Notes: a model not told the origin generated them from the sequence alone. Numbered from the stretch's first letter, positions 28,896 through 48,247 are shown. The stretch: 64,000 nt of DNA from Lachnospiraceae bacterium (GCA_045126515.1 JBGVOM010000216.1:2187-66186), one strand, 5' to 3'. Made by a program: numbers and translations.

Positions 28896-29825
28896 ATGAA
28901 AATAATAATGGCAAAACCGTATAAATCATATGACGATTTACTTACATTTCTGCAGAATGACAAAAACCTCATTATCGAAGATATGGACAATGCTAGACAC
29001 ATTCTGACCAAAACCAGTTATTTCTCCCTTATTTCCGGCTATAAAGATATGTTCAAAAACCAAACTACCGGAAACTATATAGACGGCACTACATTTGATG
29101 ATATTTATCGCCTATACCGCTTTGATTACGAACTGCGCAGCCTTTTCTTAAAGTATATGCTTATCGCTGAACGAAGCGTAAAATCCTCTCTTGCATACCA
29201 CTTTTCAGCTACATACGGCGACTTTCAGAAAGAATATGCATCTTTTTCCCATTATGCGGTTACGCCTGCAAACAAAGGGGACATCCAGAAACTTCTTAAT
29301 ATTTTTCGTTACCAGCTAACCCATAATAAAGACCATGCCTATATTAACCACTACAAGTCAAAACATCGTAATGTCCCTCTGTGGATTATGGTGCAGGTGT
29401 TGACAATAGGACAGGTTTCCCATATGTTTGATTATCTGAACGCCTCTGTTCCCATTAAAGTCTGCAATGACTTTCACCAAGTTACCCGAAAGGATATGCA
29501 CTCTTTTCTTTCTGTCATGACAAAGCACAGGAATGTATGTGCCCATGGAGAACGTTTTTTCAATTATGTAACAAAAGACAGTATTACCGACACACTCATC
29601 CATAAAAAATTGCACATTTCACAAATAAACGGACGTTTTCAAAGTGGGAAAAATGATATCTTTTCCGAGGTAATCATCCTGAAATATCTTCTGGATACAG
29701 AAGATTTCCGGAATTTTTATTATGAGTTAAGACATTGCCTGAAAAAGCAAAATCCCAGAAAAGATATATTAGAGATGATGGGCTTTCCCGAAAACTGGAT
29801 GTCAATCATGCGTCTCAAAATCTGA
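28896..29825 (+). CDS. Abi_2-family abortive infection protein (AbiD/AbiF-like)
   Basis: 309 aa. Sequence pattern and length are typical of Abi_2 (AbiD1/AbiF): YDDLLTFLQ, YRFDYELRSLFLKYMLIAERSVKSSLAYHF, NVPLWIMVQVLTIGQVSHMFDYL. Confidence 0.7.
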   Translation: MKIIMAKPYKSYDDLLTFLQNDKNLIIEDMDNARHILTKTSYFSLISGYKDMFKNQTTGNYIDGTTFDDIYRLYRFDYELRSLFLKYMLIAERSVKSSLAYHFSATYGDFQKEYASFSHYAVTPANKGDIQKLLNIFRYQLTHNKDHAYINHYKSKHRNVPLWIMVQVLTIGQVSHMFDYLNASVPIKVCNDFHQVTRKDMHSFLSVMTKHRNVCAHGERFFNYVTKDSITDTLIHKKLHISQINGRFQSGKNDIFSEVIILKYLLDTEDFRNFYYELRHCLKKQNPRKDILEMMGFPENWMSIMRLKI

Positions 29826-30443: not shown

Positions 30444-31292
30444 ATGGACAATGAAAATGCTAATCGAATAATTAGATTCTGCCCTTATTGCGGAAAAAAT
30501 TTAGATATTGGTGCGAGATTTTGCAAAGAATGTGGACAAGCAATTAGCATGACAAATCCCCAACAATCAGTACCAACTAATAGTTTTGCACAAACACAAT
30601 CAGGTAATCCAACTGAAAGAAAAACGGTTTACGAAGGATATATACATAAATGCCCTAATTGTGGTGAAGTCTTAGAAGCGTTTGTCACACATTGTCCTTC
30701 GTGCGGATATGAAATTCGTGATACCCATTCTTCAAGTTCTGTTAGAGAATTTGCTGCAAAACTCGAAAGAATTGAAGCGAAACAAATGCCTGCTTTTGAG
30801 CAAAAGAAATCTGTAATGAAAATGGTATTTGGGAAGGATTTCCAAAATAAAGACGAAGCAGAGGAAGCAAGGGATGATTTTGAAGAGCAGAAAGAACAGG
30901 AAAAAGCGACACTTATTATAAACTATTCAGTTCCTAATACAAAAGAGGATATATTAGAATTTATGATTTTGGCAGCATCTAATATCAATGTGAAAAAAGG
31001 AATAGATGATGAGGTTACTAAAGCGTGGATTACAAAATTAGAACAGGTATATCAACGTGCTGAAATCTCTATGGGAAGTAACCCTGATTTTTTGCAAATC
31101 AAGAGCATTTATGACCGTAAGAAGAAAGAAATTAAGGATAAGAAGCATAAGACAACCATTGGTGTTGTCGGTGGAATTGCAGGTTGGTTTTTTCTATTAG
31201 GGTTGCTCTGGAATCCTGTAGCGACGATTGGGATAGCGGTTGGCATAATTGTTTTGATTGTTATAGGGTTTGTCCTATTTAAGCGTAAATAA
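30444..31292 (+). CDS. Double zinc-ribbon protein with C-terminal TM anchor
   Basis: Two CxxCG...CxxCG zinc ribbons (FCPYCG..CKECG and CPNCG..CPSCG), a coiled or acidic middle, and two C-terminal TM helices. Confidence 0.5.
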   Translation: MDNENANRIIRFCPYCGKNLDIGARFCKECGQAISMTNPQQSVPTNSFAQTQSGNPTERKTVYEGYIHKCPNCGEVLEAFVTHCPSCGYEIRDTHSSSSVREFAAKLERIEAKQMPAFEQKKSVMKMVFGKDFQNKDEAEEARDDFEEQKEQEKATLIINYSVPNTKEDILEFMILAASNINVKKGIDDEVTKAWITKLEQVYQRAEISMGSNPDFLQIKSIYDRKKKEIKDKKHKTTIGVVGGIAGWFFLLGLLWNPVATIGIAVGIIVLIVIGFVLFKRK

Positions 31293-31313
31293 ACTATAAG
31301 GGAGGAAAAACAA

Positions 31314-32687
31314 ATGGCTTTCTTTGATAGAAATGATAAAACAGGCGGCTTTATGGATGAAATCCGTTGCGATGAGCCTTCATATCTGATATGGAAGTGG
31401 CATCCTTCTGGTTCCCAACTTGGAGAGAATAACAGAGAAAATGCTATACGCTGGGGTTCATCATTAAGAGTTAAGGATGGAGAAGTTGCGGTTTTTGTTT
31501 ACAAACAACAAAATGGAATAATGCAAGATTTCATTGAAGGTCCCTATGACCAAATCATTAAAACAGAGAACTTCCCAATACTTGCAAGTATTGTAGGATT
31601 GGCTTATGAGGGTGGCACTCCTTTTCAGGCAGAGGTTTATTTTATCAATCTTGCCCAGATTATTCAAACAAAATTTGCTGTTCCGTTCTTTGATGTATAT
31701 GATCCAAGATTTGCAGACTTTGGTGTTCCTCTTGCTGTCAGGGGTACTATCAGCTTTAAAATTGAAGATTACAGAGAATTTATTAAACTGCATCGGCTAA
31801 ACACCTTTAATCTTGCAGATTTTCAAACGCAAATTCGTGATGCTGTAAGCAGATATGTGAAAGACACTGTTGCTAATGCTCCTGCAGCTCACAACATTCC
31901 TTTGATACAGATTGAAACAAAGGTATCTCAAATCAACGATGTTATTGAACTTGACCTTGGAGAAAGATTGAGGGAAACCTTTGGAGTCGAAATTTCCGGT
32001 GTTGATGTTGGTGCTATTGAACTTGACAAATCAAGTGAGGGATATCACTCACTTATGAGTGTGACAAAAGATATTGCTGCAGCAACCGCAAAGGCAGAAT
32101 CCGAAGCACGAATTAAGGATATTGCCGCCAAACAGCGTATTGAAGCAGAGAACTACGAGGAAACTCTGCGTATTCAGAGAGAAGAAGGTCAATATGCTCA
32201 ACATAAGCAAACACAATCGTCTAACATTGGTGCTTTCCAAGTTGAAAAGCAAGCAGAAGTTGGTGTTGCAGGAGCTGAAGCATTGGGACAGATGGGGGCT
32301 AATGGTGCTGGTGATATAAATCTCGGCAGTGGCGGAGACGGCTTTAATATGGCGGCAATGATGGCAAGTATGGCTGTTGGCGGTGCGGTCGGGCAAAACA
32401 TTGCCGGTTCTATGAATAATATGATGCAGGGCATCAATCAACCTGTCCAGACAGACATTACACCTCCACCGATTCCAACGTCGGCTTATAATGTAGCGGT
32501 CAACGGTCAGGCAACCGGACCATTTGATATTAGCATATTGAAGCAAATGGCTATTGCCGGACAATTCAAGGCAAGCAGCTTGGTGTGGAAGTCAGGAATG
32601 GAAACTTGGTTAAGGGCGGACTCTGTCGATGAATTAAAGGATTTGTTCAAAAATGTAATGCCGCCAATCCCAACGACAGAAGAATAA
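31314..32687 (+). CDS. SPFH/band-7-like protein (COG4260 'virion core protein-like') with C-terminal DUF4339/GYF-like domain
   Basis: The N-terminal roughly 250 aa resemble COG4260 SPFH proteins (assignment from memory, unverified). Then a Gly/Ala/Met-rich linker. The C-terminus is GPFDISILKQMAIAGQFKASSLVWKSGMETWLRADSV. Confidence 0.5.
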   Translation: MAFFDRNDKTGGFMDEIRCDEPSYLIWKWHPSGSQLGENNRENAIRWGSSLRVKDGEVAVFVYKQQNGIMQDFIEGPYDQIIKTENFPILASIVGLAYEGGTPFQAEVYFINLAQIIQTKFAVPFFDVYDPRFADFGVPLAVRGTISFKIEDYREFIKLHRLNTFNLADFQTQIRDAVSRYVKDTVANAPAAHNIPLIQIETKVSQINDVIELDLGERLRETFGVEISGVDVGAIELDKSSEGYHSLMSVTKDIAAATAKAESEARIKDIAAKQRIEAENYEETLRIQREEGQYAQHKQTQSSNIGAFQVEKQAEVGVAGAEALGQMGANGAGDINLGSGGDGFNMAAMMASMAVGGAVGQNIAGSMNNMMQGINQPVQTDITPPPIPTSAYNVAVNGQATGPFDISILKQMAIAGQFKASSLVWKSGMETWLRADSVDELKDLFKNVMPPIPTTEE

Positions 32688-32703
32688 CGAGGAGGAATGA
32701 ATT

Positions 32704-34740
32704 ATGAAGTGTCTTAAATGTGGTGCTGAATTAAGCGAAGATACGAAATTTTGCTCTTATTGTGGAGCTAAAGTGGAAGCACAAACTGAAATACCACCGA
32801 TTCCGCCTGAAGCTGAAAAAGCGGAAGAACCTAAAATGGAAGAAAAATATTCTTATCAAAATAATACGATTAATACTACTTCTCTCACTTCAAAACCGAC
32901 AAGCAATGCTGATAAGATTAAAACTAAATTTCTTGGCATTTGGAACAAATTAAGCAAATTCGGAAAAATTGCAGCAATCGGTATTACGGTATTTGTGATT
33001 CTAGGGCTTGTGGCTTTCCTTGCAGGCAGAATTTTTGCAGGTATTCTTGCTGTCGTACAAATTGCTATCGTGATAGTTGCAATATTGATGAAAAAGCAGA
33101 TTATCAAAGTTCCTAGGACTTGGATACCATTGGTGCCTATTGTGTTGTCTTTCGTGCTCATAGTTCCGTATTTTGGCTTGTTTAAGGTGAATATGGCTGA
33201 CTACGAAAAATATGCGTGGAATGAAGTTGTGCTTGCCGATATGCTTCCTAAGCCTAAATCTCCTTATGGCGAAATCATTTCAAATTCAGAAGATTATCTG
33301 TCTTTAGACGTAACAAAAACAAGTGAAGAGCAATATGGTAAATACATAGAAGACTGCAAAAACAAAGGTTTTACGATTGATGCTGAAACAACGGGAAGCT
33401 TTTTCTGTGCTTACAATGATAAAGGGTATAAATTGTCACTAAGCTATTATGACAATAAAATGCATATTGGTCTTGATGCCGCTATGGAGTTAGGTACGCT
33501 TACTTGGTCTGACAGTGAAATGGCGAAATTACTTCCTGTTCCTAAATCAACCATTGGAAATATTCGGCAAGATGATGAAAAAGGCTTCGTTGCTTATATT
33601 GGTGAAACAACCATTGATGAATATAATGCCTATGTGGAAGCTTGTGAAGATAAGGGATTTACTGTTGACGCTAACAAAACAGAAAAACTATATTCAGCTA
33701 AGAATGAAGATGCCTATAAACTTTCGGTTGAGTATAAGGGAAACAATATGATTTACATTTCAGTTGATGAACCGGAATTTGATGTGAGCATTGAAATTGA
33801 GTGTGTTGAAAATTTAATTTTCAGCAAATATGATGTTGAAACATATATTGATGGTGATCATAAAGGAACTATTTCTCATGGTGATAAAGAAAAATATTCT
33901 GAAGTATTGACAAAAGGAAAGCATACAATTAGTTTTCAGAGTGCCGAAGACGATACTCTTGATGGAGAAATTGAAGTTGATATTTCAAAGAGCGAAACAC
34001 TAAAATTGAAGATTTCCTGTTCAAGTTCCGGTATTAACATTGATCTAATTGCAGGCACAACAAATGACAATCCGGAAGAAAATAAATCAACTGAAACTGA
34101 AGATTCAACAATCGTTGTAACTATGAGCGAAGATGATTTCATAGGTATGCACTATACCGATGCAGAAGCGAAACTTCGAGAAATGGGTTTCGCAGTGTTT
34201 GAATATGAAACCCTTGAAACCGAAGATATTAACGAACCTGATGATACAATTGGTGCGGTCGAGATAAAAAATTGGGAGTTTGGTAAGGGTGATTTTGCTG
34301 TTGGCGATACCTATGAAACAGATGCTATTGTTGTTTTGTGGTATTATGTTTGCGATGAACCAGAACCAAATCTGACAGTAGACAACTGTCCAGAACTTGT
34401 AGCAATATTGGCTAATAAAGCAGAAATAGATGAATCTTATTCTTCTTTTGCTACTAAGTATAATGGTAGAATCATTGAGTTCGATGGTAGAATAGATTAC
34501 TGCACAAAACACGGAAATTGTAATACAAGATTTGATTATCTTGTGAGTGCAGGCGATTATGACCCTGACCATCAAATAGGTCCGACATTCAAATTTGAAG
34601 ATGTAAATTATTCTGATTTGAATACTGATTTGGAAACTGTAAGCGTTGGTTTGAATGTTCATATTGTAGCAGAGGTAAAATCATTTGATAGCAACAGTGG
34701 ACTTTTCTATTTGGAGCCAATTGCAGTAACAAAAAGATAA
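32704..34740 (+). CDS. Zinc-ribbon membrane protein with large extracytoplasmic repeat domain
   Basis: N-terminal zinc ribbon CLKCGA..CSYCGA, two TM helices, two internal modules of about 75 aa each (…CKNKGFTIDAETTG… / …CEDKGFTVDANKTE…), and a PASTA-like segment. Confidence 0.5.
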   Translation: MKCLKCGAELSEDTKFCSYCGAKVEAQTEIPPIPPEAEKAEEPKMEEKYSYQNNTINTTSLTSKPTSNADKIKTKFLGIWNKLSKFGKIAAIGITVFVILGLVAFLAGRIFAGILAVVQIAIVIVAILMKKQIIKVPRTWIPLVPIVLSFVLIVPYFGLFKVNMADYEKYAWNEVVLADMLPKPKSPYGEIISNSEDYLSLDVTKTSEEQYGKYIEDCKNKGFTIDAETTGSFFCAYNDKGYKLSLSYYDNKMHIGLDAAMELGTLTWSDSEMAKLLPVPKSTIGNIRQDDEKGFVAYIGETTIDEYNAYVEACEDKGFTVDANKTEKLYSAKNEDAYKLSVEYKGNNMIYISVDEPEFDVSIEIECVENLIFSKYDVETYIDGDHKGTISHGDKEKYSEVLTKGKHTISFQSAEDDTLDGEIEVDISKSETLKLKISCSSSGINIDLIAGTTNDNPEENKSTETEDSTIVVTMSEDDFIGMHYTDAEAKLREMGFAVFEYETLETEDINEPDDTIGAVEIKNWEFGKGDFAVGDTYETDAIVVLWYYVCDEPEPNLTVDNCPELVAILANKAEIDESYSSFATKYNGRIIEFDGRIDYCTKHGNCNTRFDYLVSAGDYDPDHQIGPTFKFEDVNYSDLNTDLETVSVGLNVHIVAEVKSFDSNSGLFYLEPIAVTKR

Positions 34741-34955
34741 ATCGAAAATGGTTGATAACAGCATTTCAGGTAAGAATAAGATGATATAGGACACTGAGGT
34801 TGAATACCTGCCCTCATTGCAACGAAAGTATAACAGACACTATTTGATTCAGTAGCATTGCTAAGGACTGCGTAACAGAGGTCTGTGATTACGAATGTTC
34901 AGAATGCGGTGAATGTAGCAATTTGAATGTTAATCTATATTAAGGAGTGAACACT

Positions 34956-35186
34956 ATGGAATATTGTATTGATTGCGGTGCAGAAATGAAGTATATCGGA
35001 AACAGAGAATGGGAATGTACCAAGTGCCACACCATTTACGAAATCGAAGGTATCGATTATGATGATGAAGACGAAGATGGTGAGAGATTGAGTGTATACG
35101 ACGCAGCACCAATTTGGGCATCACATGGTAAGGATGAGGATTATATGTTCGGTTATACTGAAGAAGAACTCGAAGACGCACTTTAA
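34956..35186 (+). CDS. Small acidic zinc-ribbon protein
   Basis: 76 aa. Strong RBS TAAGGAG. CIDCG...CTKC. Very acidic, with a DYDDEDEDGE run. Confidence 0.45.
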   Translation: MEYCIDCGAEMKYIGNREWECTKCHTIYEIEGIDYDDEDEDGERLSVYDAAPIWASHGKDEDYMFGYTEEELEDAL

Positions 35187-35200
35187 GGAGGAATGAACAA

Positions 35201-35410
35201 ATGGCAGGTTTAAAAGGTTGGAAAAAAGCATTGAAAGATGCAGTTGATTATCCGTGGGACAGTGATATTGATTCGGATCATCCCGAATGTCCCAACTGCG
35301 GCAACATAATGGATTTTAATGGTCACGATGATATGGGGGATTTCGCTTTTGGTGAAGGCTACTGGGAATGTGGCAGTTGTGGCTTCAAAGTAACTGAGAA
35401 CGATCTGTAA
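35201..35410 (+). CDS. Small acidic zinc-ribbon protein
   Basis: 69 aa. RBS TAAGGAGG. CPNCG...CGSCG. Confidence 0.45.
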   Translation: MAGLKGWKKALKDAVDYPWDSDIDSDHPECPNCGNIMDFNGHDDMGDFAFGEGYWECGSCGFKVTENDL

Positions 35411-35451
35411 TACATATATATTAATCTGAGAAACAAATGTATGTCCAAATG

Positions 35452-35493
35452 CAAAAACTCCTTACTTCCCGGTGTGGTGGTAAGGAGTTTTTA
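35452..35493. terminator. Rho-independent terminator (aactccttac / gtaaggagtt, 14-nt loop, U-rich tail)
   Basis: Read directly. Confidence 0.6.
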
Positions 35494-35570
35494 TACCCAT
35501 ATCCTCCATGACAATACATGAGTCACGTTTGCAGGGATGTGCATTTTTGCATCCATTTTATGACTGATTT

Positions 35571-36221
35571 CTAATAATATCCCCTTGCTTCCCTCCATCC
35601 CCTCACATAACATCTGATTCCAACATAGACTGCCTGCACGAGTAACAGAATAAGCAGGATATTTAACGGCAGTATCGTCTTTATCCATTTTCCAAAGAAA
35701 ATCACAGCCACAATACTTGCCAGCGTCACCATTATAGTAAGTATGTCCATGCAGTTCCTCTTGTAAAGCCTGGCAATCTTTATTCCCGCAAAAACCGCCA
35801 ATGCTCCGGTACCTGCCGCACAGCCGCCGGCAATCAGTATCATTGTCAGCCAATACACAATTCCTGCAATGGCGGTATTTGAGATTCTGTTACTAATCTG
35901 TGCAGCCGCTTTCCCTGCATGGATAACCCATCCTGAAGCCATCTGCAAAAATCCCCATGATTTATTGAGGAATATCCTGCAATCAGAAATAAATGCTTCC
36001 GACTGCACCGCCTGAAAGATGGTGGTTGTAAGAGAGTACCATACTAGCAGGAACATTGTGGTTCCATACCTGGCAGTTTTTGCCTTGTACCTGCCTGCAA
36101 GTTTTTCCCTCTGCCTTTCGTACTTATCCTTCGCTTTCTGGCAGGCTGTTTGGTTACAGATTCTACATTTTTCATAGAGTACCGGCTTTTCAACCGGTAC
36201 CTCTACTTTCTTCTGGTGCAT
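35571..36221 (-). CDS. Hypothetical membrane protein with N-terminal Cys cluster
   Basis: 216 aa. CRICNQTAC near the N-terminus and four clear TM helices. The RBS is weak. Confidence 0.45.
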   Translation of the reverse strand: MHQKKVEVPVEKPVLYEKCRICNQTACQKAKDKYERQREKLAGRYKAKTARYGTTMFLLVWYSLTTTIFQAVQSEAFISDCRIFLNKSWGFLQMASGWVIHAGKAAAQISNRISNTAIAGIVYWLTMILIAGGCAAGTGALAVFAGIKIARLYKRNCMDILTIMVTLASIVAVIFFGKWIKTILPLNILLILLLVQAVYVGIRCYVRGWREARGYY

Positions 36222-36250: not shown

Positions 36251-38011
36251 ATTGGAACGAAAGCGGTGATTCGAAGAAAAAATGGAACTTCGTTTCGAGA
36301 GTTTGCCTTATTTGTTCATGACTTTGCCCTTTTGTTTGACAGAGAAGGCAATGCTTTAAATCCGCCGAAGGTTCCGGGTTCTCATGACGATCCGGGTGTT
36401 ATGGGAATCAATTATCGCTGTGAACCTATGAGAGAAAGGCTAAAATGTCACAAGGATGCAGCCTATGTATTTAGTTCCATTATCCATGGGGATCCTGCCA
36501 CACCGATATTAGAAACTTATCCGGGAGATGAAATCATCATACGTCTTTTAGACGGCGCCCATGAAGAACAGCATTGTTTCAATATTACAGGTATGTCCTG
36601 GCGAAAAGAGATTGCTGACATTCACTCACCAATGACAGCCTCTCAAACCATCGGAATTTCAGAAGTCTTTAATGTAAGAATCGAAGAAGGATATGGTCCC
36701 GGGGATTATCTGTATTATTATGGCGGTATTGATGACGTATGGCTTGGTCTGTGGGGAATTATCCGGGTTTATGGTAAAGTGTGCAAAAAGTTGAAACCAT
36801 TGTGTAAACCTACGAATCAGATTTTCCCTTTACCTCCATGTCCGGGAAAGGGTGCGGTAATCAGAAAATATGAAATTGCGGCAATTCAGACAAAGATTCA
36901 ATACAATAAGCATGGAGACCATGATCCCAATGGACTGGTGTTTGTTCCGGTAGAAGACGTGGCGTTGGTACTTTCCGGAAAGAAAAATCCAAAACCATTA
37001 ATTCTACGTGCCAACGCAGGGGATTGGATAGAGGTGACACTGCACAACATGTTTTCCAAAAAGGAGCCTATTCCTTATTTTGATTATCCGAAAGTACCGC
37101 TGGATATGGAATATCAGCCTTCAGAGAGAGTTTCCTTAAATCCCCAGTTTTTGCAGTATGATAATCTGTGTGATTCAGGAATTAATGTAGGATATAACAA
37201 TAAAGAACAGACGGTGGGACCGGGGGAAAGCAAAAAATACCTGTGGTATGCGGATAAAGAATATGGTGCTTGCAATGTGCAGTCCTTTGGTGATTTGAGA
37301 AATCACAGGTATCACGGATTGTTTGGAGCTATCATTATAGAACCGGTGGGAGCAAAATGGTATGGTGATACATGGATGAAAGAAAATATTTATGAGGAGC
37401 AGGCAGTGATAGAAGCATCGGGTGTGGAGACTTTCCGGGAATTTGTAGTCCTGATACAAAATGGTATCCGCCTTCTGGATGAAAATGGAGAGTTGATTCA
37501 AACAACAGCGACAGAGCCTGGAGAGGAACCGGATGCAGAGGACACCGGGGAGAAGGAATATAATTACCGTTCTGAGCGGTTTGCTAACCGGTTAAAAAGA
37601 AATTCCGCAATTTCACAGGTATTTAGCAGCAGGGTACATGGAGATCCGGCAACGCCTGTGTTTAAAGCATATTCCGGGGAACGTGTTATTTTCAGAACCC
37701 TGATGCCTGCAGATAAGCCAAGAAATGTTAGTTTTGCAGTTCATGGGCATCAATGGAAAGAGCAACCGGAGGACTATTATTCCAGACGAATTCCCCTACA
37801 GGGAGCTGTCAGCATAGGAAACAAATTTGATATAGAATTAGAAGACGGCGCCTCCTGTCCGGGAGATTATCTGTATCGTTCGGGAAGTTTAAAGTGGGAT
37901 GTGGAATCCGGCATGTGGGGAATTTTCAGGGTGATGAAGGAAAGCCTGAAGTGTAAGTGTGTGAATAAGTGCAGGAAGATGGCTTGCTGTTGGGGGAAGA
38001 GAGGGAAGTAG
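36251..38011 (+). CDS. Multicopper-oxidase-like (cupredoxin-fold) protein with degenerate metal ligands; no canonical start, probably 5'-truncated remnant
   Basis: Two internal repeats end in GDYLYYYGG...WGIIRVY and GDYLYRSGS...ESGMWGIFRV. These sit where MCOs have W.YHCH...GM..F. No in-frame ATG/GTG/TTG follows the AAGGAG at 36239; only ATT at 36251 is available. Upstream in-frame sequence back to 36056 is low-complexity and overlaps the minus-strand gene. Confidence 0.35.
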   Translation: MGTKAVIRRKNGTSFREFALFVHDFALLFDREGNALNPPKVPGSHDDPGVMGINYRCEPMRERLKCHKDAAYVFSSIIHGDPATPILETYPGDEIIIRLLDGAHEEQHCFNITGMSWRKEIADIHSPMTASQTIGISEVFNVRIEEGYGPGDYLYYYGGIDDVWLGLWGIIRVYGKVCKKLKPLCKPTNQIFPLPPCPGKGAVIRKYEIAAIQTKIQYNKHGDHDPNGLVFVPVEDVALVLSGKKNPKPLILRANAGDWIEVTLHNMFSKKEPIPYFDYPKVPLDMEYQPSERVSLNPQFLQYDNLCDSGINVGYNNKEQTVGPGESKKYLWYADKEYGACNVQSFGDLRNHRYHGLFGAIIIEPVGAKWYGDTWMKENIYEEQAVIEASGVETFREFVVLIQNGIRLLDENGELIQTTATEPGEEPDAEDTGEKEYNYRSERFANRLKRNSAISQVFSSRVHGDPATPVFKAYSGERVIFRTLMPADKPRNVSFAVHGHQWKEQPEDYYSRRIPLQGAVSIGNKFDIELEDGASCPGDYLYRSGSLKWDVESGMWGIFRVMKESLKCKCVNKCRKMACCWGKRGK

Positions 38012-38177
38012 GTAATAATTGCTAATTTAGTGAAGTTGTTTGTGTTGTTTGGGAGTAGTGTAAAATCGTAGATTATTAAAACATAACGTAGTCCCTCTGT
38101 TCTAACGAACAAAATTAGCATTTTGTAGAAAAAATATGCTTGTACAGATAGGAGTATAGGTTGTATAATTAGATAAA

Positions 38178-38262
38178 ATAAAAAAGGCTAAAAAGCCTTT
38201 TTTAAAGCACCAATGTGCGTAAACAATGTCGGTTAAAACCTTATTTGCACTCACCTTGTAAG
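38178..38262 (-). ncRNA. tracrRNA: Predicted tracrRNA (anti-repeat + nexus GGUU-UU-AACC + terminator)
   Basis: Minus strand reads CUUACAAGGUGAGUGCAAAUAAGGUUUUAACCG... CUUACAAGGU pairs with repeat nt 9-18. GAGUG forms a bulge. CAAAU pairs with repeat nt 1-5. AAUAAGG and the nexus resemble SpCas9 tracrRNA. It ends in the hairpin aaggct/agcctt plus U6. Confidence 0.65.
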
Positions 38263-38300
38263 CAATATTATAATAACATATATTCATAGGTAAATGCAAG
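38263..38300 (-). promoter_or_regulatory. tracrRNA promoter TTGCAT-18-TATTAT(AAT)
   Basis: The reverse complement of 38267-38300 reads cttgcatttacctatgaatatatgttattataat. The predicted start falls at the anti-repeat. Confidence 0.5.
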
Positions 38301-38338
38301 AGAAAAAATCATACAGAGATAAGAATAGGGGGATAAAA

Positions 38339-41300
38339 ATGGGTAAAAAAATGTATGTGGGAATCGATATGGGAACAAATTCAGTGGGGATGGCAGTAAC
38401 GGATGAAACCTATAATTTGTATAGGGTAAAAGGGAAGGACTTTTGGTGTTCAAGAGTATTTGGAGAAGCTAATACTGCGGTTGAGAGAAGAACTAATCGA
38501 ATATCGAGAAGAAGACGGCAGAGGGAAATGGCTAGACAGGGTGTTTTACGTGAACTGTTTTCAGACGAAATAAATAAGGTGGACGAAGGATTTTTTTCAA
38601 GACTTGATGAGTCAAAGTACCATATGGAGGATAGGGATAATCAGCAACCATATGCTTTGTTTGCAGATAGTGGGTATACGGATAAAAATTATTTTAACGA
38701 TTATCCTACAATATTTCATTTACGTAATGAATTGCTTCATCCTAAAAGGGATGCATATGATGTGCGATTAGTATATTTGGCTATTGCAAATATGTTTAAG
38801 CATAGGGGAAACTTTCTGAATGAGACACTTGAGGTGGAAAAAATAACGTCTAGTGCAGAAGAGGTATATCAGCTTCTTGTAGAAGCGGCTATGATGTATT
38901 CTATAGAATTGCCGGTAAGTATAGACGCGGAAAAACTAGTGAATATCATTGGAGAAAAAGGTGTTTCTAGAAGTAAACACTTAGAAAATGTTAGCGAATA
39001 TCTTGGTGTGTCTAAAAAATGCAAGCAAGCATACGAGATACTAAAGATGGTTTGTGGTATGAGTGGAATCCTTTTTAATATATATGGTGAAGATGTAATT
39101 GATGAGGAAAACAAAAAGTTTAGTTTGAATTTTAGAGATAGTAACTATGAGGAGAAAGAAGCTCAAGCATTAGAATTTTTAGGTGATGATTATTTTGAGT
39201 TGTTAGAGGTGATAAAAGAGCTTCACGATATTGGTATGCTTTCAAGTATTATAAAGGGGCACAAATATCTTTCTGAGTCTAGAGTAGAGCTTTATGAGGA
39301 ACATAAGAAGGATCTTGATATGCTTCAAGGTGTTATGAAAAAGTATGATATGAAAGCCTATGATGAGATGTTCAGAGTTATGAAAGAGGGCAATTACAGT
39401 GCTTATGTAGGTAGCGTTAATGCACTTGGTAAAAAGATAAGAAGAAACGGAGGAAAGGGTAGGTCACAGGAAGATTTTTACAAAGGTGTAAAAGCGGCAC
39501 TCAAGAATTTCCCAGAGAATGATGAAGATGTAAAAGTTATACTAGCTAAGATAGAAAACGAAACATTTATGCCAAAACAGCTGACAGCTTCTAATGGTGT
39601 TATTCCGAATCAGTTACATGCATCTGAAATGAAAGCTATACTTACAAATGCGGAAAAGTACTTGCCTTTTTTACTTGATAAAGATGAATCAGGTCTTACT
39701 GTTTCTCAAAGGATAGTGGAGTTATTTACATTCCACATACCTTATTATGTTGGTCCAATAGGTGCTAGCGGCGATAATGTATGGGCAAGAAGAAGACCGG
39801 GAGAGGAAAAGGGAAAAGTCTATCCATGGAATTTCGAACAAAAAATAGACACGCAGGGTGCAGCAGAAGAATTTATAGGCAGAATGGTTAGGCATTGTAC
39901 ATATCTTACAGGTGAGCGTACATTGCCAAAGCAGTCACTTCTATATGAAAAGTTTATGGTGTTAAACGAATTAAATAATCTTAAAATAAATGGAGCAAAG
40001 CTAGAGGTATCTGTAAAACAGGGAATCTACGATAATCTTTTTAGAAATGGAAAAAAGGTTACGATAAATATGCTAAAAGCTTATTTATACAATAATTCTA
40101 TCATAGCATCAAAGGATGATATTGTAATTACTGGTATTGATGCTGGATTTAATGCGTCATTAACTTCAGTTGGCAAGTTTAGAGGAGTATTAGGAGATGA
40201 CCTGTTTACTGATGAAAATCAGGCAATGGTAGAAAAAATTATATTTTGGGGAACTGTGTATGGTAATGATAAGAAGTTCTTAAAAGAGAGAATAGAAACT
40301 GAGTATAAAGGAAGATTAACGATTGAACAGATAAAACGTATTGTCGGGTTCAAATTTAATGGTTGGGGAAAATTGTCTAAGACCTTTTTGGAGCTTCCTG
40401 GCAATTGCGAATGTGGTGAGTGTTCAATTATACAAGCACTTTGGGAAACAAACCATAATCTTATGGAGCTTTTATCGGAACAATATGGTTTTAAGAAAAA
40501 TCTGGATGCAATGTCAAATGATGTGGAAAAGCCACTTCGTGATTGGACAATAGAAGATTTGGATGGAAAATACTTATCTGCCCCTGTAAAGCGTATGATA
40601 TGGCAGACAATGAAGATGTTAAGAGAGGTTTGTGAATTAACAGGGAAAGAACCGGATAAAGTATTCGTTGAGATGCCGAGAGAACGTGAGAAAAATCCTA
40701 TACGTAAAGATTCTAGAAAGAAGAAATTGATTGAATTATATTCAGCGCTTAAGAGTGAACAAAAGTCATGGGCTGAGCTAAAGATAAGAGAAATTGAAGG
40801 AAAGAGTGAGGCAGACTTTAGAATAAAGAAGTTGTATCTATATTATTTACAACAAGGGAAGTGTATGTATAGTGGTGAAAAAATAGAATTGAGTGACCTT
40901 GTTAATAATAACCTTTATGATATAGACCATATATATCCAAGACACTTTATAAAAGACGACAGTATGGAGAATAATCTGGTGCTTGTGAAAAAGGAAATTA
41001 ATAATCACAAAAGTGATACTTTTCCATTAGAAAAAGGTATACAGAGGAATATGGCAGGATTCTGGAAAACATTATGTGAACGAGGATTTATTACAAAAGA
41101 AAAGTATAACAGACTGACGCGTACGGAAGCCTTTACTGACGAAGAAAAAGCTGCGTTTATTAGCAGACAGTTAGTAGAGACGCGGCAGGGAACGAAAGCT
41201 ATAACGCAGGTTTTGAAACAAGCGTTTCCGAACACACAGGTTATATTTGTAAAGGCTGGTATTGTGAGTGATTTTAGAAAGAAATTCGAAATAAACAAGG

Positions 41301-42445
41301 TAAGAGCATTGAATGATACTCATCATGCAAAAGATGCATACCTGAATATAGTTGTGGGAAATACATATTATACGAAGTTTACCAGTAATCCAATCAATTT
41401 TATAAAAGATGCAACAAAGAATCCTAAGGACGATTTCTTTAAGTACAATATGGATAAAATATTTGATTATAATGTAAGCAGAAATGGGGAAAATGCATGG
41501 GTGGCTGATAATGGAATATCAAAGAAACAGGTTCTTAGCGTGGTCAATAGAAATACTGTGACAATAACCAGAAAGACAGAAGAGTATCATGGTGCATTGT
41601 CTAATAAAGCGACAGTTTGGGGGAAAGATAAAGCTAAGGGAAATCCAGAGGCTTATATGCCAGTTAAATCCAAGGATGCTAAGGCTCAGGACGTTACAAA
41701 GTATGGAGGTATTACATCAATAGCAAATTCTGGATATACACTTATAGAGTACACAATTAAAGGAAAGAAAGTAAGAAGTCTGGAGGCTTTACCTGTATAT
41801 TTGGGAAAAAGTAATACTCTGACAAAGGAGAAAATCTTAGTTTATATGTCAGAGGCTCTTCGTAAGGAGTATGTGGGTAAAGAGGTCTCAGATTTAAGAG
41901 TATGTGTACCATTTATTCCTCAAAAGTCAAAGGTTAGGATAGACGGCTTTGATTACTATTTGGGTGGAAAAACAGGAAATTCTATTTATTTAAATAATGA
42001 TGTGCCACTTTATCTATCATATGGTGATGAAGAATACTTGAGAAAGATAATAAAAGCGATAGAAAAAGCGAATTATGAAGAAAGGGATAAGGGGGGCAAT
42101 GTGATTATTACAAAAGAAAAGAATAATGCACTTTTTAAGACGTTAGAATTAAAGCTTAATAGTAAGCCGTATAATAATAACAGATGGAATATATATAAGA
42201 CGATGGAAGGAAAAGAAGATGTATTCAAAGAGTTAGATATTGAGGAACAGTGTTTTGTTATAAATCAGATTATATATTGGATTAATTCGACTACTCAGAA
42301 TGTTAATCTGAAGAATTTGAAAGGTAGTGAGCATGCAGGAACATTGGTTTTGAATAAAAAAATATCAGAGTGTAATGAATTTACTCTTATTCATCAGTCG
42401 ATAACAGGTATGTATGAAAGAAAAATAGACCTGTTAGCGATATGA
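38339..42445 (+). CDS. cas9: Cas9 (type II-A), 1368 aa
   Basis: RuvC-I MYVGIDMGTNSVGMAV. Arg-rich bridge helix RRTNRISRRRRQRE. HNH DIDHIYPRHF...NNHKSD. RuvC-III HHAKDAYL. ATG 38339 follows GGGGGAT. Confidence 0.95.
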   Translation: MGKKMYVGIDMGTNSVGMAVTDETYNLYRVKGKDFWCSRVFGEANTAVERRTNRISRRRRQREMARQGVLRELFSDEINKVDEGFFSRLDESKYHMEDRDNQQPYALFADSGYTDKNYFNDYPTIFHLRNELLHPKRDAYDVRLVYLAIANMFKHRGNFLNETLEVEKITSSAEEVYQLLVEAAMMYSIELPVSIDAEKLVNIIGEKGVSRSKHLENVSEYLGVSKKCKQAYEILKMVCGMSGILFNIYGEDVIDEENKKFSLNFRDSNYEEKEAQALEFLGDDYFELLEVIKELHDIGMLSSIIKGHKYLSESRVELYEEHKKDLDMLQGVMKKYDMKAYDEMFRVMKEGNYSAYVGSVNALGKKIRRNGGKGRSQEDFYKGVKAALKNFPENDEDVKVILAKIENETFMPKQLTASNGVIPNQLHASEMKAILTNAEKYLPFLLDKDESGLTVSQRIVELFTFHIPYYVGPIGASGDNVWARRRPGEEKGKVYPWNFEQKIDTQGAAEEFIGRMVRHCTYLTGERTLPKQSLLYEKFMVLNELNNLKINGAKLEVSVKQGIYDNLFRNGKKVTINMLKAYLYNNSIIASKDDIVITGIDAGFNASLTSVGKFRGVLGDDLFTDENQAMVEKIIFWGTVYGNDKKFLKERIETEYKGRLTIEQIKRIVGFKFNGWGKLSKTFLELPGNCECGECSIIQALWETNHNLMELLSEQYGFKKNLDAMSNDVEKPLRDWTIEDLDGKYLSAPVKRMIWQTMKMLREVCELTGKEPDKVFVEMPREREKNPIRKDSRKKKLIELYSALKSEQKSWAELKIREIEGKSEADFRIKKLYLYYLQQGKCMYSGEKIELSDLVNNNLYDIDHIYPRHFIKDDSMENNLVLVKKEINNHKSDTFPLEKGIQRNMAGFWKTLCERGFITKEKYNRLTRTEAFTDEEKAAFISRQLVETRQGTKAITQVLKQAFPNTQVIFVKAGIVSDFRKKFEINKVRALNDTHHAKDAYLNIVVGNTYYTKFTSNPINFIKDATKNPKDDFFKYNMDKIFDYNVSRNGENAWVADNGISKKQVLSVVNRNTVTITRKTEEYHGALSNKATVWGKDKAKGNPEAYMPVKSKDAKAQDVTKYGGITSIANSGYTLIEYTIKGKKVRSLEALPVYLGKSNTLTKEKILVYMSEALRKEYVGKEVSDLRVCVPFIPQKSKVRIDGFDYYLGGKTGNSIYLNNDVPLYLSYGDEEYLRKIIKAIEKANYEERDKGGNVIITKEKNNALFKTLELKLNSKPYNNNRWNIYKTMEGKEDVFKELDIEEQCFVINQIIYWINSTTQNVNLKNLKGSEHAGTLVLNKKISECNEFTLIHQSITGMYERKIDLLAI

Positions 42446-43311
42446 GTTGGCGTACGATAGTGGTCTCTAAAAGTGCTAAGTTGGATTACCAGATGGGATA
42501 TATGGTAGTGCGACAGGAAGAGACGACGAAGATATTTTTAAACGAGATAAGTACAGTAATAATAGAGACCACTGCGGTCTCTATTACTGGAACATTGATG
42601 TGTGAGCTGGTAAAGAATAAAATAAAGATAGTATTTTGTGATGAAAAAAGAAATCCCTCGTCGGAGTTGGTGCCGTATTATGGCTCACATGATACCAGTG
42701 CAAAGATAAGAAATCAAATTGCGTGGAGTGATGATATAAAGGCAACTGTATGGACGGAAATCGTGACTGAAAAGATACGAAAACAAAAAGAAGTGTTAGA
42801 AACAGTTTGTAAAGACGAAGAAGCCATGCTGCTGCAAAGCTATATAGATGAGATGCAGTATGGAGATTCTACTAACAGAGAAGGTCATGCTGCAAAGGTT
42901 TATTTTAATACATTATTTGGAAAAGATTTCACGAGAACATCTGATTGTAATATCAATGCAGCTCTTAATTATGGTTATAGTATTGTGCTGTCAGCGTTTA
43001 CGAGGGAAGTAGTAGCGAACGGATATATCACACAGATAGGATTATTTCATGACAATATGTTTAATCAGTTTAATCTGGCTTCGGATTTGATGGAACCTTT
43101 TCGACCAATTGTGGATCAGGTAGTATATGATATGGAACTTCGTACATTTGAAAAAGAAGAAAAGATGAGGTTAGTAAATCTATTGAACCAATCAGTGCGT
43201 ATTAATGATAGGTCAGAATATGTGAACAATGCAATAAAGATATATTGTAAAAGTGTTTTTGATGCACTTGGTGATAAAGATATTGCTATGATTAAGTTCT
43301 ATTCGCTATAA
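42442..43311 (+). CDS. cas1: Cas1
   Basis: 289 aa. Overlaps the cas9 stop (ATGA). Typical Cas1 length and position. Confidence 0.9.
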
Positions 43312-43322
43312 GGGGAAAAGGA

Positions 43323-43643
43323 ATGAGTTACAGATTTATGAGAATACTTGTGATGTTCGATTTGCCGGTGGTTACTTCGGCGGAACGAAAAGAATATGCA
43401 AAATTTAGAAAAAATCTAATAAAATCCGGCTTTTTGATGCTGCAAGAATCGGTATATTGCAAACTGGCACCCAATTCCACGTTAGCGGATGCTGTGATAG
43501 AAAATGTGAGAAAAAACAAGCCGGAAAAGGGGTTGGTGCAAGTGTTGAAGGTGACAGAAAAGCAGTATGCAAAGATGGAATATATCGTGGGAGAAGGCCG
43601 GACAGAAGTGTTATCTTCTGATGATAGGTTGGTGATATTATGA
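43323..43643 (+). CDS. cas2: Cas2
   Basis: 106 aa beginning [16 protein letters not shown], a typical Cas2 N-terminus. Confidence 0.9.
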
Positions 43644-44314
43644 AGCTTGTAGAAAGAGAACTGGGACTTGATATAGAATTAAAAGAAAATGTGGTGTCAG
43701 TTATAGTGGTGGAAGATGTTGCATTAAGACTTCCTATGGTTGAAGGACTGTATTCACAGGTTATGGGAAAAGATGGTAACTGGCTGCTTGTGGAAAATGA
43801 AAAGAAATATGAATTGAGCAAGAAAGCGGAGATTATACTGGAACCATTTTCGCTAGAGCTGAATAACAAAAAAGTGAAAACGAAATTATATCAAGATATC
43901 AAAACAATTGCCCAGGATTTTTGCTTCTCACAAGGAGTAGAGGTGCATTCACATATATGTAATTATCTGGAAAGTTTGCTGGAGAGAATACCGTATCCGG
44001 TAAAATATGAGGAAGAATGGAATTTATTAGAACTTCTCAAGGCATATGGAGTGGAACTTGTGGAGGAATGTGACAGTATGTGTGAAAAGCTATTCAATTA
44101 TATCAAGCTAATTAACCATGTGTGTGGAATTGGTATATTTATAACTGTGAATATCAAACAATATCTGACTGAGAAGCAGATATTAGAGTTGTACAAACTT
44201 GCTATGTATAGTAAAATACAGTTAGTGCTGATAGAATTTAATATGTTTAATGAGAAGTTCGAGTGCGAGGAAATGTATATTTTTGATAAAGACAGTTGCA
44301 TTATAACATATTAG
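43640..44314 (+). CDS. csn2: Csn2 (type II-A signature)
   Basis: 224 aa. Coupled to cas2 (ATGA). It lies between cas2 and the array, and its size and pattern match short Csn2. Confidence 0.8.
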
Positions 44315-44427
44315 AGACAATAAAATGGCGATTTTACACCGACTTTGTGTTATATAAAGAACAATAAGGTGCTTACACATATGCCAATATGTATAGGTTC
44401 GGTGATAACCTTGAAATTGAATTTGAG

Positions 44428-46180
44428 GTTTGAGAACCTTGTAAGTGAATAAAGGTGTAAAACATAATCGAACTTTTGTTTGATAAAATATGGGTTTGAG
44501 AACCTTGTAAGTGAATAAAGGTGTAAAACTTAAAGAAAAAACAAATGGAAAACAGAGCAGTTTGAGAACCTTGTAAGTGAATAAAGGTGTAAAACAAACA
44601 TCATATTTATAATGCCTATGCTGGGGTTTGAGAACCTTGTAAGTGAATAAAGGTGTAAAACATTCTTCCACTTTTAGGAAGATAAACTGTAGTTTGAGAA
44701 CCTTGTAAGTGAATAAAGGTGTAAAACTCACTGTTATTTCCAAAATTACACCCCTTTGTTTGAGAACCTTGTAAGTGAATAAAGGTGTAAAACAATATGT
44801 CAAAACGAAAACTAGAAGTATTTGTTTGAGAACCTTGTAAGTGAATAAAGGTGTAAAACATAAGTTAGATGTAGATAACTACGACTATTGTTTGAGAACC
44901 TTGTAAGTGAATAAAGGTGTAAAACATTTCAGATGAAGGAAACCCAGCGATAGTAGTTTGAGAACCTTGTAAGTGAATAAAGGTGTAAAACTTGTTGTGG
45001 CACGCTAATTGTTGGAATAGTGTTTGAGAACCTTGTAAGTGAATAAAGGTGTAAAACCAAAGGCATAATAAAAATTAGTTGCAATAAGTTTGAGAACCTT
45101 GTAAGTGAATAAAGGTGTAAAACGGCGGGGATTCTCCGAGGGGAAAACTTTTTGTTTGAGAACCTTGTAAGTGAATAAAGGTGTAAAACTCGCTATTAAA
45201 CCAACTAAAGCAGGCAATAGTTTGAGAACCTTGTAAGTGAATAAAGGTGTAAAACCTATCATACCGATATAATCGGGCAGGACATGTTTGAGAACCTTGT
45301 AAGTGAATAAAGGTGTAAAACTACCGAGAATAGAACAAATGTTTATATTTTGTTTGAGAACCTTGTAAGTGAATAAAGGTGTAAAACTAGCAGTAATGAC
45401 ACCAAAGGGCGGTGTAGGTTTGAGAACCTTGTAAGTGAATAAAGGTGTAAAACATTAACAGAATACGAACGACTAGAAGCATTGTTTGAGAACCTTGTAA
45501 GTGAATAAAGGTGTAAAACAATGTCAGAAGGAAGTAAACTTACTCTTCCGTTTGAGAACCTTGTAAGTGAATAAAGGTGTAAAACTATATCACATCCTTT
45601 CCGTTTTCTCCACTAGTTTGAGAACCTTGTAAGTGAATAAAGGTGTAAAACTTTGTTCAGATTTTGTGCAGATTCCTTGGGGTTTGAGAACCTTGTAAGT
45701 GAATAAAGGTGTAAAACGGTGACATTCTTCATTTGCTTCTTGCGACCAGTTTGAGAACCTTGTAAGTGAATAAAGGTGTAAAACTATACCACATTGTTTT
45801 ATAAATCAACATCAGTTTGAGAACCTTGTAAGTGAATAAAGGTGTAAAACTTCCATACCACTGGCATACCGTTCCATTGGTTTGAGAACCTTGTAAGTGA
45901 ATAAAGGTGTAAAACAAATACTATACAGGAATGAGCAACTACGCAGTTTGAGAACCTTGTAAGTGAATAAAGGTGTAAAACGAATTAGCAGCACTTAAAT
46001 GGGAAGATATAGTTTGAGAACCTTGTAAGTGAATAAAGGTGTAAAACATAGGGGGAAATGATATGATTAATAGATTTAGTTTGAGAACCTTGTAAGTGAA
46101 TAAAGGTGTAAAACACATTCGCTTATGGTTAGTGCTAATCGTGCGTTTGAGAACCTTGTAAGTGAATAGTAAGCGCCAAA
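44428..46180 (+). CRISPR. CRISPR array: 27 repeats (36 bp, GTTTGAGAACCTTGTAAGTGAATAAAGGTGTAAAAC), 26 spacers of 29-31 bp; last repeat degenerate at 3' end
   Basis: Counted directly. Repeats start at 44428, 44494, 44560 and so on, with mostly 66-bp period. The final copy at 46145 is GTTTGAGAACCTTGTAAGTGAATAgtaagcgccaaa. The leader is the 113 bp after csn2. Confidence 0.97.
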
Positions 46181-46289
46181 TAATCCTGCGGTCACATACA
46201 AAATCACCCCAGTCCTTTGCGAGTTGGAGTAATTCACTATAATTCATATGCGATTTTTGATAGACTGGAGTTTCTCACCCAAAGCTAAT

Positions 46290-47177
46290 TCAAATCTCCA
46301 ACCCCGCAAAGAAATCTTCGCATCTCACAAACTCATGCTGATACCGGAGTAAAAAACCAATTATTTCCGGTGCAGCATCTTGTAATCCTTCCTGCAGTAA
46401 AGGCAGTGTCTGCGCGGTAATATACCCGGTATCAGCAACAATCTTCAGGTACCGGATATCATCCCGAAATTCCTTACAAAGCATCTCGAAAGGAACTGTA
46501 TGTTCTTGTGCCAGTGCACCTTCCGGCATATGGGAAGTCAGGTAATCACACAATATTTTTCTGGTGGAGTTCTCTAAATAGGCAGGATAGAGAAGACGTT
46601 GAAATACAAGAAAAGTTTTCTCACGTTGTCGTTGTTTCGTAAACTTTTGCGTTTGTAAATCCAAATCTTCTACACTAAACCAGCCAAGAAATACAGGCTC
46701 AAATCCGGTATTGTCCGGTGCTGAAAGAAATTGAAGTAAAACAGTATCATAGTCTGCCATCCATTCGGCGTGCTGGGTTTCATTTCCGGCACGTTCCGGG
46801 CAACACAAAGAAGGCTCATTTAACAGAGTGACGGAGGAAGCCAGAAAGTAAGGCAATCCAGAATTCTTAGAATGATCCGGTTCAATTTTAATTTCTGTCA
46901 GATTGATACAGTCCAGAAAAACATTTTTTCCCAAACGAATAGAATGAGCCGGTAAAGTAAGGGATTTCAGACTTTTCATATGGGCAAATCCCCAATCGCC
47001 GATTTCCTGAATGGTTTCCGGTAAAGTCAGATGTGTAATACTTTTACAGCTTAAAAAAGCTTTTGCTCCAATTTCAGTTACCGGAAGAGCATTTACCAGA
47101 GCAGGTATAGTTACCGTGGTTTCATTTCCCTGATAGCTTTCCAAAAAGTAATTGGTATCCTTTTTCACGAATTTCAT
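46290..47177 (-). CDS. Hypothetical protein with N-terminal leucine-rich-repeat (BspA-type) region
   Basis: 295 aa. The N-terminal LRR-like periodicity (TIPALVNALPVTEIGAKAFLSCKSITHLTLPETIQEIGDWGF) is recognisable. No signal peptide. Confidence 0.4.
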   Translation of the reverse strand: MKFVKKDTNYFLESYQGNETTVTIPALVNALPVTEIGAKAFLSCKSITHLTLPETIQEIGDWGFAHMKSLKSLTLPAHSIRLGKNVFLDCINLTEIKIEPDHSKNSGLPYFLASSVTLLNEPSLCCPERAGNETQHAEWMADYDTVLLQFLSAPDNTGFEPVFLGWFSVEDLDLQTQKFTKQRQREKTFLVFQRLLYPAYLENSTRKILCDYLTSHMPEGALAQEHTVPFEMLCKEFRDDIRYLKIVADTGYITAQTLPLLQEGLQDAAPEIIGFLLRYQHEFVRCEDFFAGLEI

Positions 47178-47203
47178 AGGAGCCTCCTATTGTGTAATCA
47201 TAG

Positions 47204-48247
47204 TTACTGGCATTTGATAGTATAAATATAGTAATCTCCGTAGATATAGTACGAATATTGAAAACTATTGATTGCATAAGATGGATATATTTTTCTTAAA
47301 TCTTTAAAAATCAGGTTACTAAGAAACTCATTATTCTCCCCAAGTTTTTTAGGAACAATTAGCTGGATATTGGATTTGTTTGTCTGGTATCCTTTTACAA
47401 AATTTTGAACAGCCTGTTCCGTGTTTTTGGATACGGTTCCTAAATTTTTAATAAATCGATTGGAACTGGTGGTGCATTTGGGATAAGCAGATTTATTCCA
47501 ATTATGAGTCTTACTCATTTGAGTGTCTGTAATTAAAAAATAACTATATCGAACATAGCCCTTTTTATCCGGAACCGGGTCATCCCAAGTGACATCAATT
47601 TGAAACCACTTGCCATTAATTTTAACCATATTCCAGGCATGTCCTCCGCCATTGGCTGTCCCGGTAACGGTTTTGCATGGAATGTTTAAGGCATCCATAA
47701 ACAGCTGAAAGGTATCAGCGTATCCTTGACATACAGCCTTTTTTTTCATCAGCACTCCCTGGGGAGAATAAGAAACCGCAGGGAGTGTTCCTTTTAAGTA
47801 ATTATTATAGTCATAAGCACAATTCAGGGCTAAATAGTCATGGATTACTTTTACTTTTTCGGCGGTAGTCATATTGACTGATATATTTTTCTTGATAATA
47901 GATTTTATTTTAGTGTCTATCTGCTTATTTCCGGAAGATGGCTGATATACCATTACTTTACATATATATTTTTTCTTTCCCAGTCTGGCAGTGATTGTAG
48001 CAGTTCCTTTTTTCTTTCCGGTAACTTTTCCCTTTGTAGTTACGGTGGCTACAGATTTTTTGGAACTGGACCATTGAATTTTCGATTTTGTACCATTTAT
48101 TTTTAAAGTGGCAGAAGAACCAACACATAAAGAGAGCTCTGAAGTGTTCAGGGTAATATTTGCAGCATTAGCAATCAGCGGATTTGTAATGGCAATAAAT
48201 AAAAAAACAGAAAGTAAAAATAATGTTATGGTTTTTGTTTTTTTCAT
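47204..48247 (-). CDS. Secreted Big_2 + transglutaminase-like cysteine protease domain protein
   Basis: Signal peptide. Big_2 segment ATLKINGTKSKIQWSSSKKSVATV. Transglutaminase core CQGYADTF...GGHAWNMV...DVTWDDP (Cys/His/Asp). Confidence 0.65.
   Translation of the reverse strand: MKKTKTITLFLLSVFLFIAITNPLIANAANITLNTSELSLCVGSSATLKINGTKSKIQWSSSKKSVATVTTKGKVTGKKKGTATITARLGKKKYICKVMVYQPSSGNKQIDTKIKSIIKKNISVNMTTAEKVKVIHDYLALNCAYDYNNYLKGTLPAVSYSPQGVLMKKKAVCQGYADTFQLFMDALNIPCKTVTGTANGGGHAWNMVKINGKWFQIDVTWDDPVPDKKGYVRYSYFLITDTQMSKTHNWNKSAYPKCTTSSNRFIKNLGTVSKNTEQAVQNFVKGYQTNKSNIQLIVPKKLGENNEFLSNLIFKDLRKIYPSYAINSFQYSYYIYGDYYIYTIKCQ

Follow-up and report, generated by a model that had tools for sequence, protein, structure and literature searches.

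A Lachnospiraceae locus with the parts of a complete subtype II-A CRISPR-Cas9 system and a Cas9 of the FrCas9 clade

We analysed a 64,000-nucleotide (nt) stretch of DNA from a Lachnospiraceae bacterium (GCA_045126515.1 JBGVOM010000216.1:2187-66186, hereafter the window) and found that this gut Lachnospiraceae chromosome very probably carries a complete, sequence-intact adaptive immune locus of subtype II-A, consisting of CRISPR repeats and their cas genes, with a Cas9 from the clade that contains FrCas9. A first-pass annotation had placed the locus at 38178-46180, which proved correct to within a few bases. Along the window the parts are a minus-strand trans-activating CRISPR RNA (tracrRNA), four co-directional open reading frames (ORFs) for cas9, cas1, cas2 and csn2, a leader and the repeat array. 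All four cas products scored far above the curated cut-offs of Pfam and NCBIfam, including that of the Csn2 equivalog, and there was no frameshift or internal stop in any of the four genes. The annotation had described a complete type II-A system with no cas gene disrupted and 26 spacers, and this description stood. All parts are present, intact and conserved, and covariation backs the RNA structure.

The effector gene, cas9 (38339-42445, plus strand), encodes 1368 amino acids (aa) and was assigned using Pfam, NCBIfam, the alignment with FrCas9 and the catalytic residues. The Pfam scores were 513 bits for Cas9_REC, 177 for Cas9_PI, 63 for HNH_4 and 63.5 for Cas9_RuvC, and NCBIfam TIGR01865 scored 874 bits. 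The catalytic residues D10, E778, D863/H864, N879, H997 and D1000 are all kept in one large effector protein whose RuvC domain is split and into which an HNH domain is inserted, as in type II systems, in agreement with the earlier claim of a 1368-aa Cas9 with intact catalytic motifs. The start ATG at 38339 is preceded by a ribosome-binding site, AGGGGGA. The longest mechanical ORF, which starts at 38294 and would encode 1383 aa, was rejected; it overlaps the tracrRNA promoter and, unlike the 1368-aa form, is absent from the record. Its ATG is the reverse complement of the tracrRNA -35 hexamer TTGCAT (38294-38299), and this overlap was one more ground for choosing the start at 38339. The 1368-aa protein is the form in the public gene calls, and it occurs verbatim in NCBI and in the Logan assemblies of two SRA runs. 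Furthermore, cas9 is under strong purifying selection, with a ratio of nonsynonymous to synonymous substitution rates (dN/dS) of 0.04-0.09 against four relatives, at dS values from 0.56 to above 2.

The three remaining genes lie on the same strand. cas1 (42442-43311, plus strand, 289 aa) overlaps the cas9 stop by 4 nt and scored 102 bits against PF01867 and 321 bits against TIGR03639 (type II Cas1). cas2 (43338-43643, plus strand, 101 aa) scored 60.5 bits against PF09827 and 85.5 bits against TIGR01573; an alternative ATG at 43323 would give 106 aa, and the gene calls in two Logan contigs, L001 and L002, take the 101-aa start. csn2 (43640-44314, plus strand) encodes a short-form protein of 224 aa, with 89.6 bits against PF09711 and 155.5 bits against TIGR01866, the type II-A Csn2 equivalog, for which the cut-off is 35. 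csn2 is the signature gene of subtype II-A. Here it follows cas9-cas1-cas2, with no cas4 as in II-B and without the three-gene layout of II-C, and 36-nt repeats, spacers of about 30 nt, a leader that lies towards csn2 and a leader-repeat junction that is conserved likewise place the locus in II-A.

The array (44428-46180, plus strand) has 26 identical 36-nt repeats, GTTTGAGAACCTTGTAAGTGAATAAAGGTGTAAAAC, with 26 spacers, and ends in a degenerate terminal repeat. The 26 copies span 44428-46114 with no mismatches and a period of 65-67 nt, where none would be expected by chance, and Tandem Repeats Finder agreed; the periods of 132-330 that it also returned were rejected as higher-order structure, being multiples of the 66-nt unit with unrelated spacers. 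The spacers are 29-31 nt long, all unique and unrelated to each other. In the 27th copy (46145-46180) the first 24 nt are intact, after which mismatches bring the total to 10 of 36 positions. The 113-nt leader (44315-44427, plus strand) ends with ATTTGAG at 44421-44427, which abuts the first repeat (GTTT...), and this ATTTGAG/GTTT junction (44421-44431) is kept in related loci. It is the Group 1 junction, which defines most type II-A loci and is needed for spacer integration in Streptococcus thermophilus CRISPR1, whereas the leader of Streptococcus pyogenes ends in ACGAG (Group 2) (PMC5382924). Because the leader junction lies at one end and the degenerate repeat at the far end, the polarity of the array is fixed as first proposed, with the leader beside csn2 and the degenerate repeat distal. 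We also observed a leader block, TTCGGTGAT(A/G)A(C/T)CT, at about 44396-44412, 10-20 nt upstream of the junction, which is conserved in the leaders of a dozen related loci (L003-L032). It could be the -10 and transcription start region of a promoter or an integration signal.

Two Logan contigs, L001 (8960-9200) and L002 (6090-6330), from SRR25030074 and SRR22213172, contain an identical locus whose array consists of the leader, one repeat, spacer 26 and the terminal repeat. We did not take this single-spacer array as a biological deletion; it most likely reflects de Bruijn-graph collapse through the repeats. Because of such collapse, array length in these contigs is uninformative. The oldest spacer, S26, and both flanks are nevertheless identical in the two independent SRA assemblies. 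No spacer is common to this array and the arrays of related species, which fits ongoing spacer turnover.

We recognized a putative tracrRNA of about 83 nt including its T-run (about 38262-38180) on the minus strand of the interval that separates cas9 from the gene before it, on the basis of an anti-repeat, a promoter-like site and a terminator; a locus-encoded tracrRNA of this kind, with an anti-repeat complementary to the repeat, is expected of type II. A consensus scan returned the putative promoter at 38267-38299 (minus strand), with a -35 hexamer TTGCAT at 38299-38294 and a -10 element TATTAT/TATAAT at 38275-38267, and the sequence after it reads CTTACAAGGTGAGTGCAAATAAGGTTTTAACCGACATTGTTTACGCACATTGGTGC. 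The related loci L004 and L006 have the same layout, a -10 hexamer and 7 nt followed by CTTACAAGG, and the site may well act as the tracrRNA promoter; the 5' end of the RNA was taken from the promoter spacing and is approximate in that sense. All on the minus strand, the parts of the predicted RNA are the anti-repeat (38262-38244), a nexus stem-loop (38240-38231), stem-loop 2 (38218-38207) and an intrinsic terminator hairpin with its T-run (38203-38180; AAAAAAGGCTTTTTAGCCTTTTTT at 38204-38179), the last identified by a scan. The anti-repeat pattern is unique in the window (0.03 matches expected). When repeat and anti-repeat were cofolded, the predicted duplex took the shape that is canonical for Cas9 guides, with an energy of -33.5 to -36.7 kcal/mol. 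Its lower stem has 5 bp (GUUUG/CAAAU) and is separated by a bulge from the upper stem, whose length is 10 bp, or 13 bp when G·U pairs are included; the nexus hairpin, the second hairpin and the terminator come next.

The structure was also examined across relatives, and the RNA is conserved as an element upstream of cas9 in about 25 related loci from GTDB genomes. In a 15-sequence alignment of the three tracrRNA hairpins, 95% of cells are paired and both sides change in 11 of the 16 pairs; none of 500 shuffles reached the observed value, and no slid register came near it. Compensatory changes occur in the nexus (GGTT/AACC, GGAT/ATCC and GGCT/AGCC) as well as in stem-loop 2 and the terminator. 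Repeat and anti-repeat also change together, from CCTTG/CAAGG in most loci to CCCTG/CAGGG in L032, and in L022 GAGAGCC occurs with AAGGC.

We then compared the system with characterised ones. The closest solved structure is FrCas9 of Faecalibaculum rodentium (PDB 9JWK/9JWN); 9JWK scored 1021 bits over the full length of the present Cas9, and the next match scored about 446. SpCas9 entries scored about 440 bits, with alignments that mostly end at residue 1021. The first-pass annotation had used SpCas9 as its comparator. The repeat and tracrRNA do differ from those of SpCas9, as it said, but the relevant comparator is FrCas9 (1021 versus about 440 bits), and the 1368-aa length common to SpCas9 and this Cas9 is a coincidence. 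Membership in the FrCas9-like clade is further indicated by the GTTTGAG... repeat and the GAGTNCAAAT tracrRNA bulge. The FrCas9 locus likewise has a divergent tracrRNA upstream of cas9, then cas9-cas1-cas2-csn2 and the array; FrCas9 has 1372 aa, its catalytic residues match, its repeat starts with GTTTGAG, and its tracrRNA has the bulge and lower stem ...ACAAG(A/G)TGAGT(T/G)CAAAT.... The present Cas9 and FrCas9 are about 43% identical across residues 5-890, falling to about 31% in the C-terminal part formed by the WED and PAM-interacting (PI) domains, PAM being the protospacer-adjacent motif. For FrCas9, the single guide RNA (sgRNA) is GUUUGAGUGUCUUGUUAAUU / AAUUAACAAGAUGAGUUCAAAU... (PMC12926199), with the same 5' repeat end and bulge as here, whereas the nexus and 3' hairpin sequences of the two tracrRNAs differ, and the FrCas9 host belongs to the Erysipelotrichaceae and not the Lachnospiraceae. 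The guide requirements, which the first-pass annotation had called potentially different, do not depart much from those of FrCas9; the repeat 5' end, bulge and tracrRNA architecture are of FrCas9 type.

With the SpCas9 system of S. pyogenes the locus has in common the subtype, gene order, Cas9 domain order and catalytic residues, a 36-nt repeat that starts with GTTT and ends with AAAC, and a guide duplex with lower stem, bulge and upper stem. The PI region, in contrast, is barely alignable, and, apart from the AAAUAAGG nexus motif, repeat and tracrRNA show no relationship in sequence. Among species representatives, the nearest Cas9s are uncharacterised ones of gut Lachnospiraceae, from the Eubacterium sp. 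metagenome-assembled genome PUUB23_bin.002 (90%), Roseburia hominis An869 (85%) and Butyrivibrio sp. CAG:318 (78%). These belong to the same Cas9 subclade and have near-identical repeats (GTTTGAGAACCTTGTAAGTAA...), tracrRNA and leader end, whereas their spacer content is wholly different and PI domain identity is 69-83%, compared with 76-94% elsewhere. Esp2 Cas9 (Eubacterium sp., 1345 aa), which is biochemically characterised and has the PAM NVRACCN, is also type II-A, with a repeat that starts GUUUGAGAG and a tracrRNA that has GAGUUCAAAUAA (PMC7606464). However, it belongs to the GTTTGAGAGTAGTGTAA repeat subgroup together with Veillonella and L034 loci, whose Cas9s share about 35-37% identity with the present one, and its PAM cannot be transferred here.

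A protein database search gave 2470 matches at E<=1e-50, with about 60 cluster representatives 70-90% identical, mostly metagenomic and, where labelled, assigned to Eubacterium, Lachnospiraceae and Roseburia. The Cas9 is an uncharacterised member of a large family whose sequences are already available, and its own exact sequence has been deposited before. A literature search with the repeat sequence returned no papers, and no GTTTGAGAACC-type repeat was found in the supplements of the Gasiunas catalogue. As far as the PDB, these supplements and a full-text search show, the enzyme is experimentally uncharacterised, as the first-pass annotation had proposed; no match to it as a characterised enzyme was found in these sources.

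We next considered the PAM. FrCas9 recognises 5'-NNTA-3' (NRTA) through N1137, Y1198, R1213, T1214, K1321 and Q1334 (PMC8931148, PMC12926199). The residues aligned to these positions are S, K, K, T, a gap and H, so that four of the six contacts are changed (N1137 to S, Y1198 to K, Q1334 to H and K1321 in a gap), while R1213 to K is conservative. The position aligned to Q1334 is variable among relatives, and across the whole family no region has diverged more than the PI domain. Because the PI domain is divergent and the PAM contacts are changed, a PAM other than NNTA is plausible, if unproven. The chances appear evenly balanced that this Cas9 reads a PAM unlike the NNTA of FrCas9 and those of other characterised orthologs while keeping an FrCas9-type guide scaffold. 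It is rather doubtful, by our estimate, that this intact locus has a Cas9 functionally the same as FrCas9, with the same NNTA (NRTA) PAM and no novelty as an enzyme. In favour of this reading, no solved relative is closer than FrCas9, the two guide RNAs have one architecture, T is kept at the T1214 position, which reads A4 of the FrCas9 PAM, and R1213 is conservatively replaced by K; yet the WED/PI part is only about 31% identical, and the four contact changes stand against such equivalence, with the Q1334 position varying even among relatives.

The spacers had been expected to yield the PAM from their protospacers, which they did not. When the whole array (26 spacers) was compared with INPHARED phages and PLSDB plasmids using blastn, only chance matches were obtained (23 nt or 83% identity). 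Exact scans of IMG/VR with 11 spacers (1, 2, 8, 13 and 15, and the IUPAC-merged 18+21, 4+19 and 5+6) found none, and neither did a search of JGI metagenomes with four spacers (the IUPAC-merged pairs 7+16 and 14+25). No spacer matched the rest of the window at <=6 mismatches, and the spacers of 13 related arrays gave only 15-20-nt chance matches to the window and to the other loci. Separately, we noted that spacer 25 (46048-46078) is identical at 24 of 31 positions to the junction of the cas1 stop and cas2 start of its own locus (43308-43338), and to the same junction in L006 and L007 (24/31), where our own estimate of the chance expectation is about 0.2; a foreign cas2 gene may have been the source of the spacer.

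By homology with characterised II-A systems, expression, processing and target cleavage would proceed as follows. The array would be transcribed from the leader into a pre-crRNA (the precursor of CRISPR RNA, crRNA), and the tracrRNA of about 80 nt would be transcribed divergently, starting just upstream of cas9. Its anti-repeat (CUUACAAGGU...CAAAU) would pair with the 5' 18-21 nt of each repeat to form the lower stem, bulge and upper stem, and Cas9 would bind the duplex, the nexus and the 3' hairpins. After cleavage by RNase III and trimming, the crRNA would guide Cas9 to matching DNA beside a 3' PAM, the PAM being subject to the same reasoning by homology, where HNH (H864) would cut one strand and RuvC (D10, E778, H997 and D1000) the other. 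New spacers would be inserted at the ATTTGAG/GTTT junction by Cas1, Cas2, Csn2 and Cas9. In small-RNA sequencing of the FrCas9 system, mature crRNAs consisted of 21-22 nt of spacer and then 20 nt of repeat, as is canonical for II-A (PMC8931148).

The immune system is apparently a working one, to judge from indirect support: purifying selection on cas9, identical repeats and arrays that differ between relatives. Several results weigh against reading the locus as a complete and working II-A system. No convincing promoter was called on the leader, Rfam gave no match to the tracrRNA or to anything else in 37500-46500, and the duplex formed by the anti-repeat has only 10-13 bp plus 5 bp, so that RNase III processing is assumed here from the FrCas9 data. 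Finally, no protospacer was found in any collection searched, and PAM inference from protospacers failed. The lack of a strong promoter call on the leader and the lack of spacer matches in the phages, plasmids, viral contigs and metagenome contigs searched would both be compatible with a silent or neutralised relic whose sequence is intact but which is unexpressed or inhibited by an anti-CRISPR, its array having stayed unchanged since it was last active. We consider this improbable. A relic would not readily explain the strong purifying selection on cas9, the identity of all 26 repeats, or the conservation of tracrRNA, leader junction and cas genes across species; the window holds no self-targeting spacer, and missing protospacers are usual where gut phages are poorly sampled. 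More improbable still would be crRNAs made from promoters inside each repeat, in the style of type II-C Neisseria, in place of a leader-driven pre-crRNA cut by RNase III. The anti-repeat does pair only with the 5' 18-21 nt of the repeat, leaving the 3' half unpaired and variable between relatives, and one weak promoter-like match extends across a repeat and the first spacer. However, this match depends on the spacer sequence and scores only 9/12, the repeat 3' end GGTGTAAAAC, read directly, has no extended -10 consensus, and the mature crRNAs of FrCas9 follow the canonical II-A pattern (PMC8931148). We retain the reading of a complete subtype II-A locus as very probable.

The surroundings of the locus were also surveyed. 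The window has 37.8% G+C and no tRNA genes, and its neighbouring genes are of chromosomal type, among them genes for an ABC transporter, a histidine kinase and a citrate-type transporter; the locus gives no appearance of belonging to a mobile element. About 8.5 kb upstream lies a second defence gene, an AbiD/Abi_2 gene for abortive infection (28896-29825, plus strand; PADLOC AbiD 201 bits, Pfam Abi_2 146 bits). An upstream cluster of little-characterised genes at 30444-36221 encodes a zinc-ribbon protein, an SPFH/Band-7 and GYF_2 protein, a protein with zinc-ribbon, DUF6591 and DUF4839 domains and, on the minus strand, a DUF6040 protein; PADLOC matched none of its genes. Immediately upstream of the tracrRNA, a 581-aa ORF (36266-38011, plus strand) belongs to no Pfam family and is kept beside the locus in L001; its repeated similarity to the multicopper oxidase MnxG is sub-threshold only (136 bits against a cut-off of 3100). 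Adjoining the array on its downstream side, 46290-48247 (minus strand) encodes a BspA-type leucine-rich-repeat protein and a transglutaminase-like protein with a Big_2 domain, which are probably surface proteins.

Biologically, this is a routine, textbook type II-A locus that opens no long-standing question, and the one possible gain from it would be a novel PAM. Comparable Cas9 orthologs have already been sequenced in their thousands. Large PAM catalogues also exist (PMC7606464, PMC12996302). The locus adds one more intact natural system of the FrCas9 clade with a readable guide RNA, and an sgRNA can be designed straight from the sequence as a 21-22-nt spacer, GUUUGAGAACCUUGUAAG, a GAAA loop, CUUACAAGGUGAGUGCAAAUAAGGUUUUAACCGACAUUGUUUACGCACAUUGGUGC and the terminator. 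If its PAM is other than NNTA, the Cas9 would be an editing enzyme with a distinct targeting range and could give wider reach to a high-fidelity Cas9 family.

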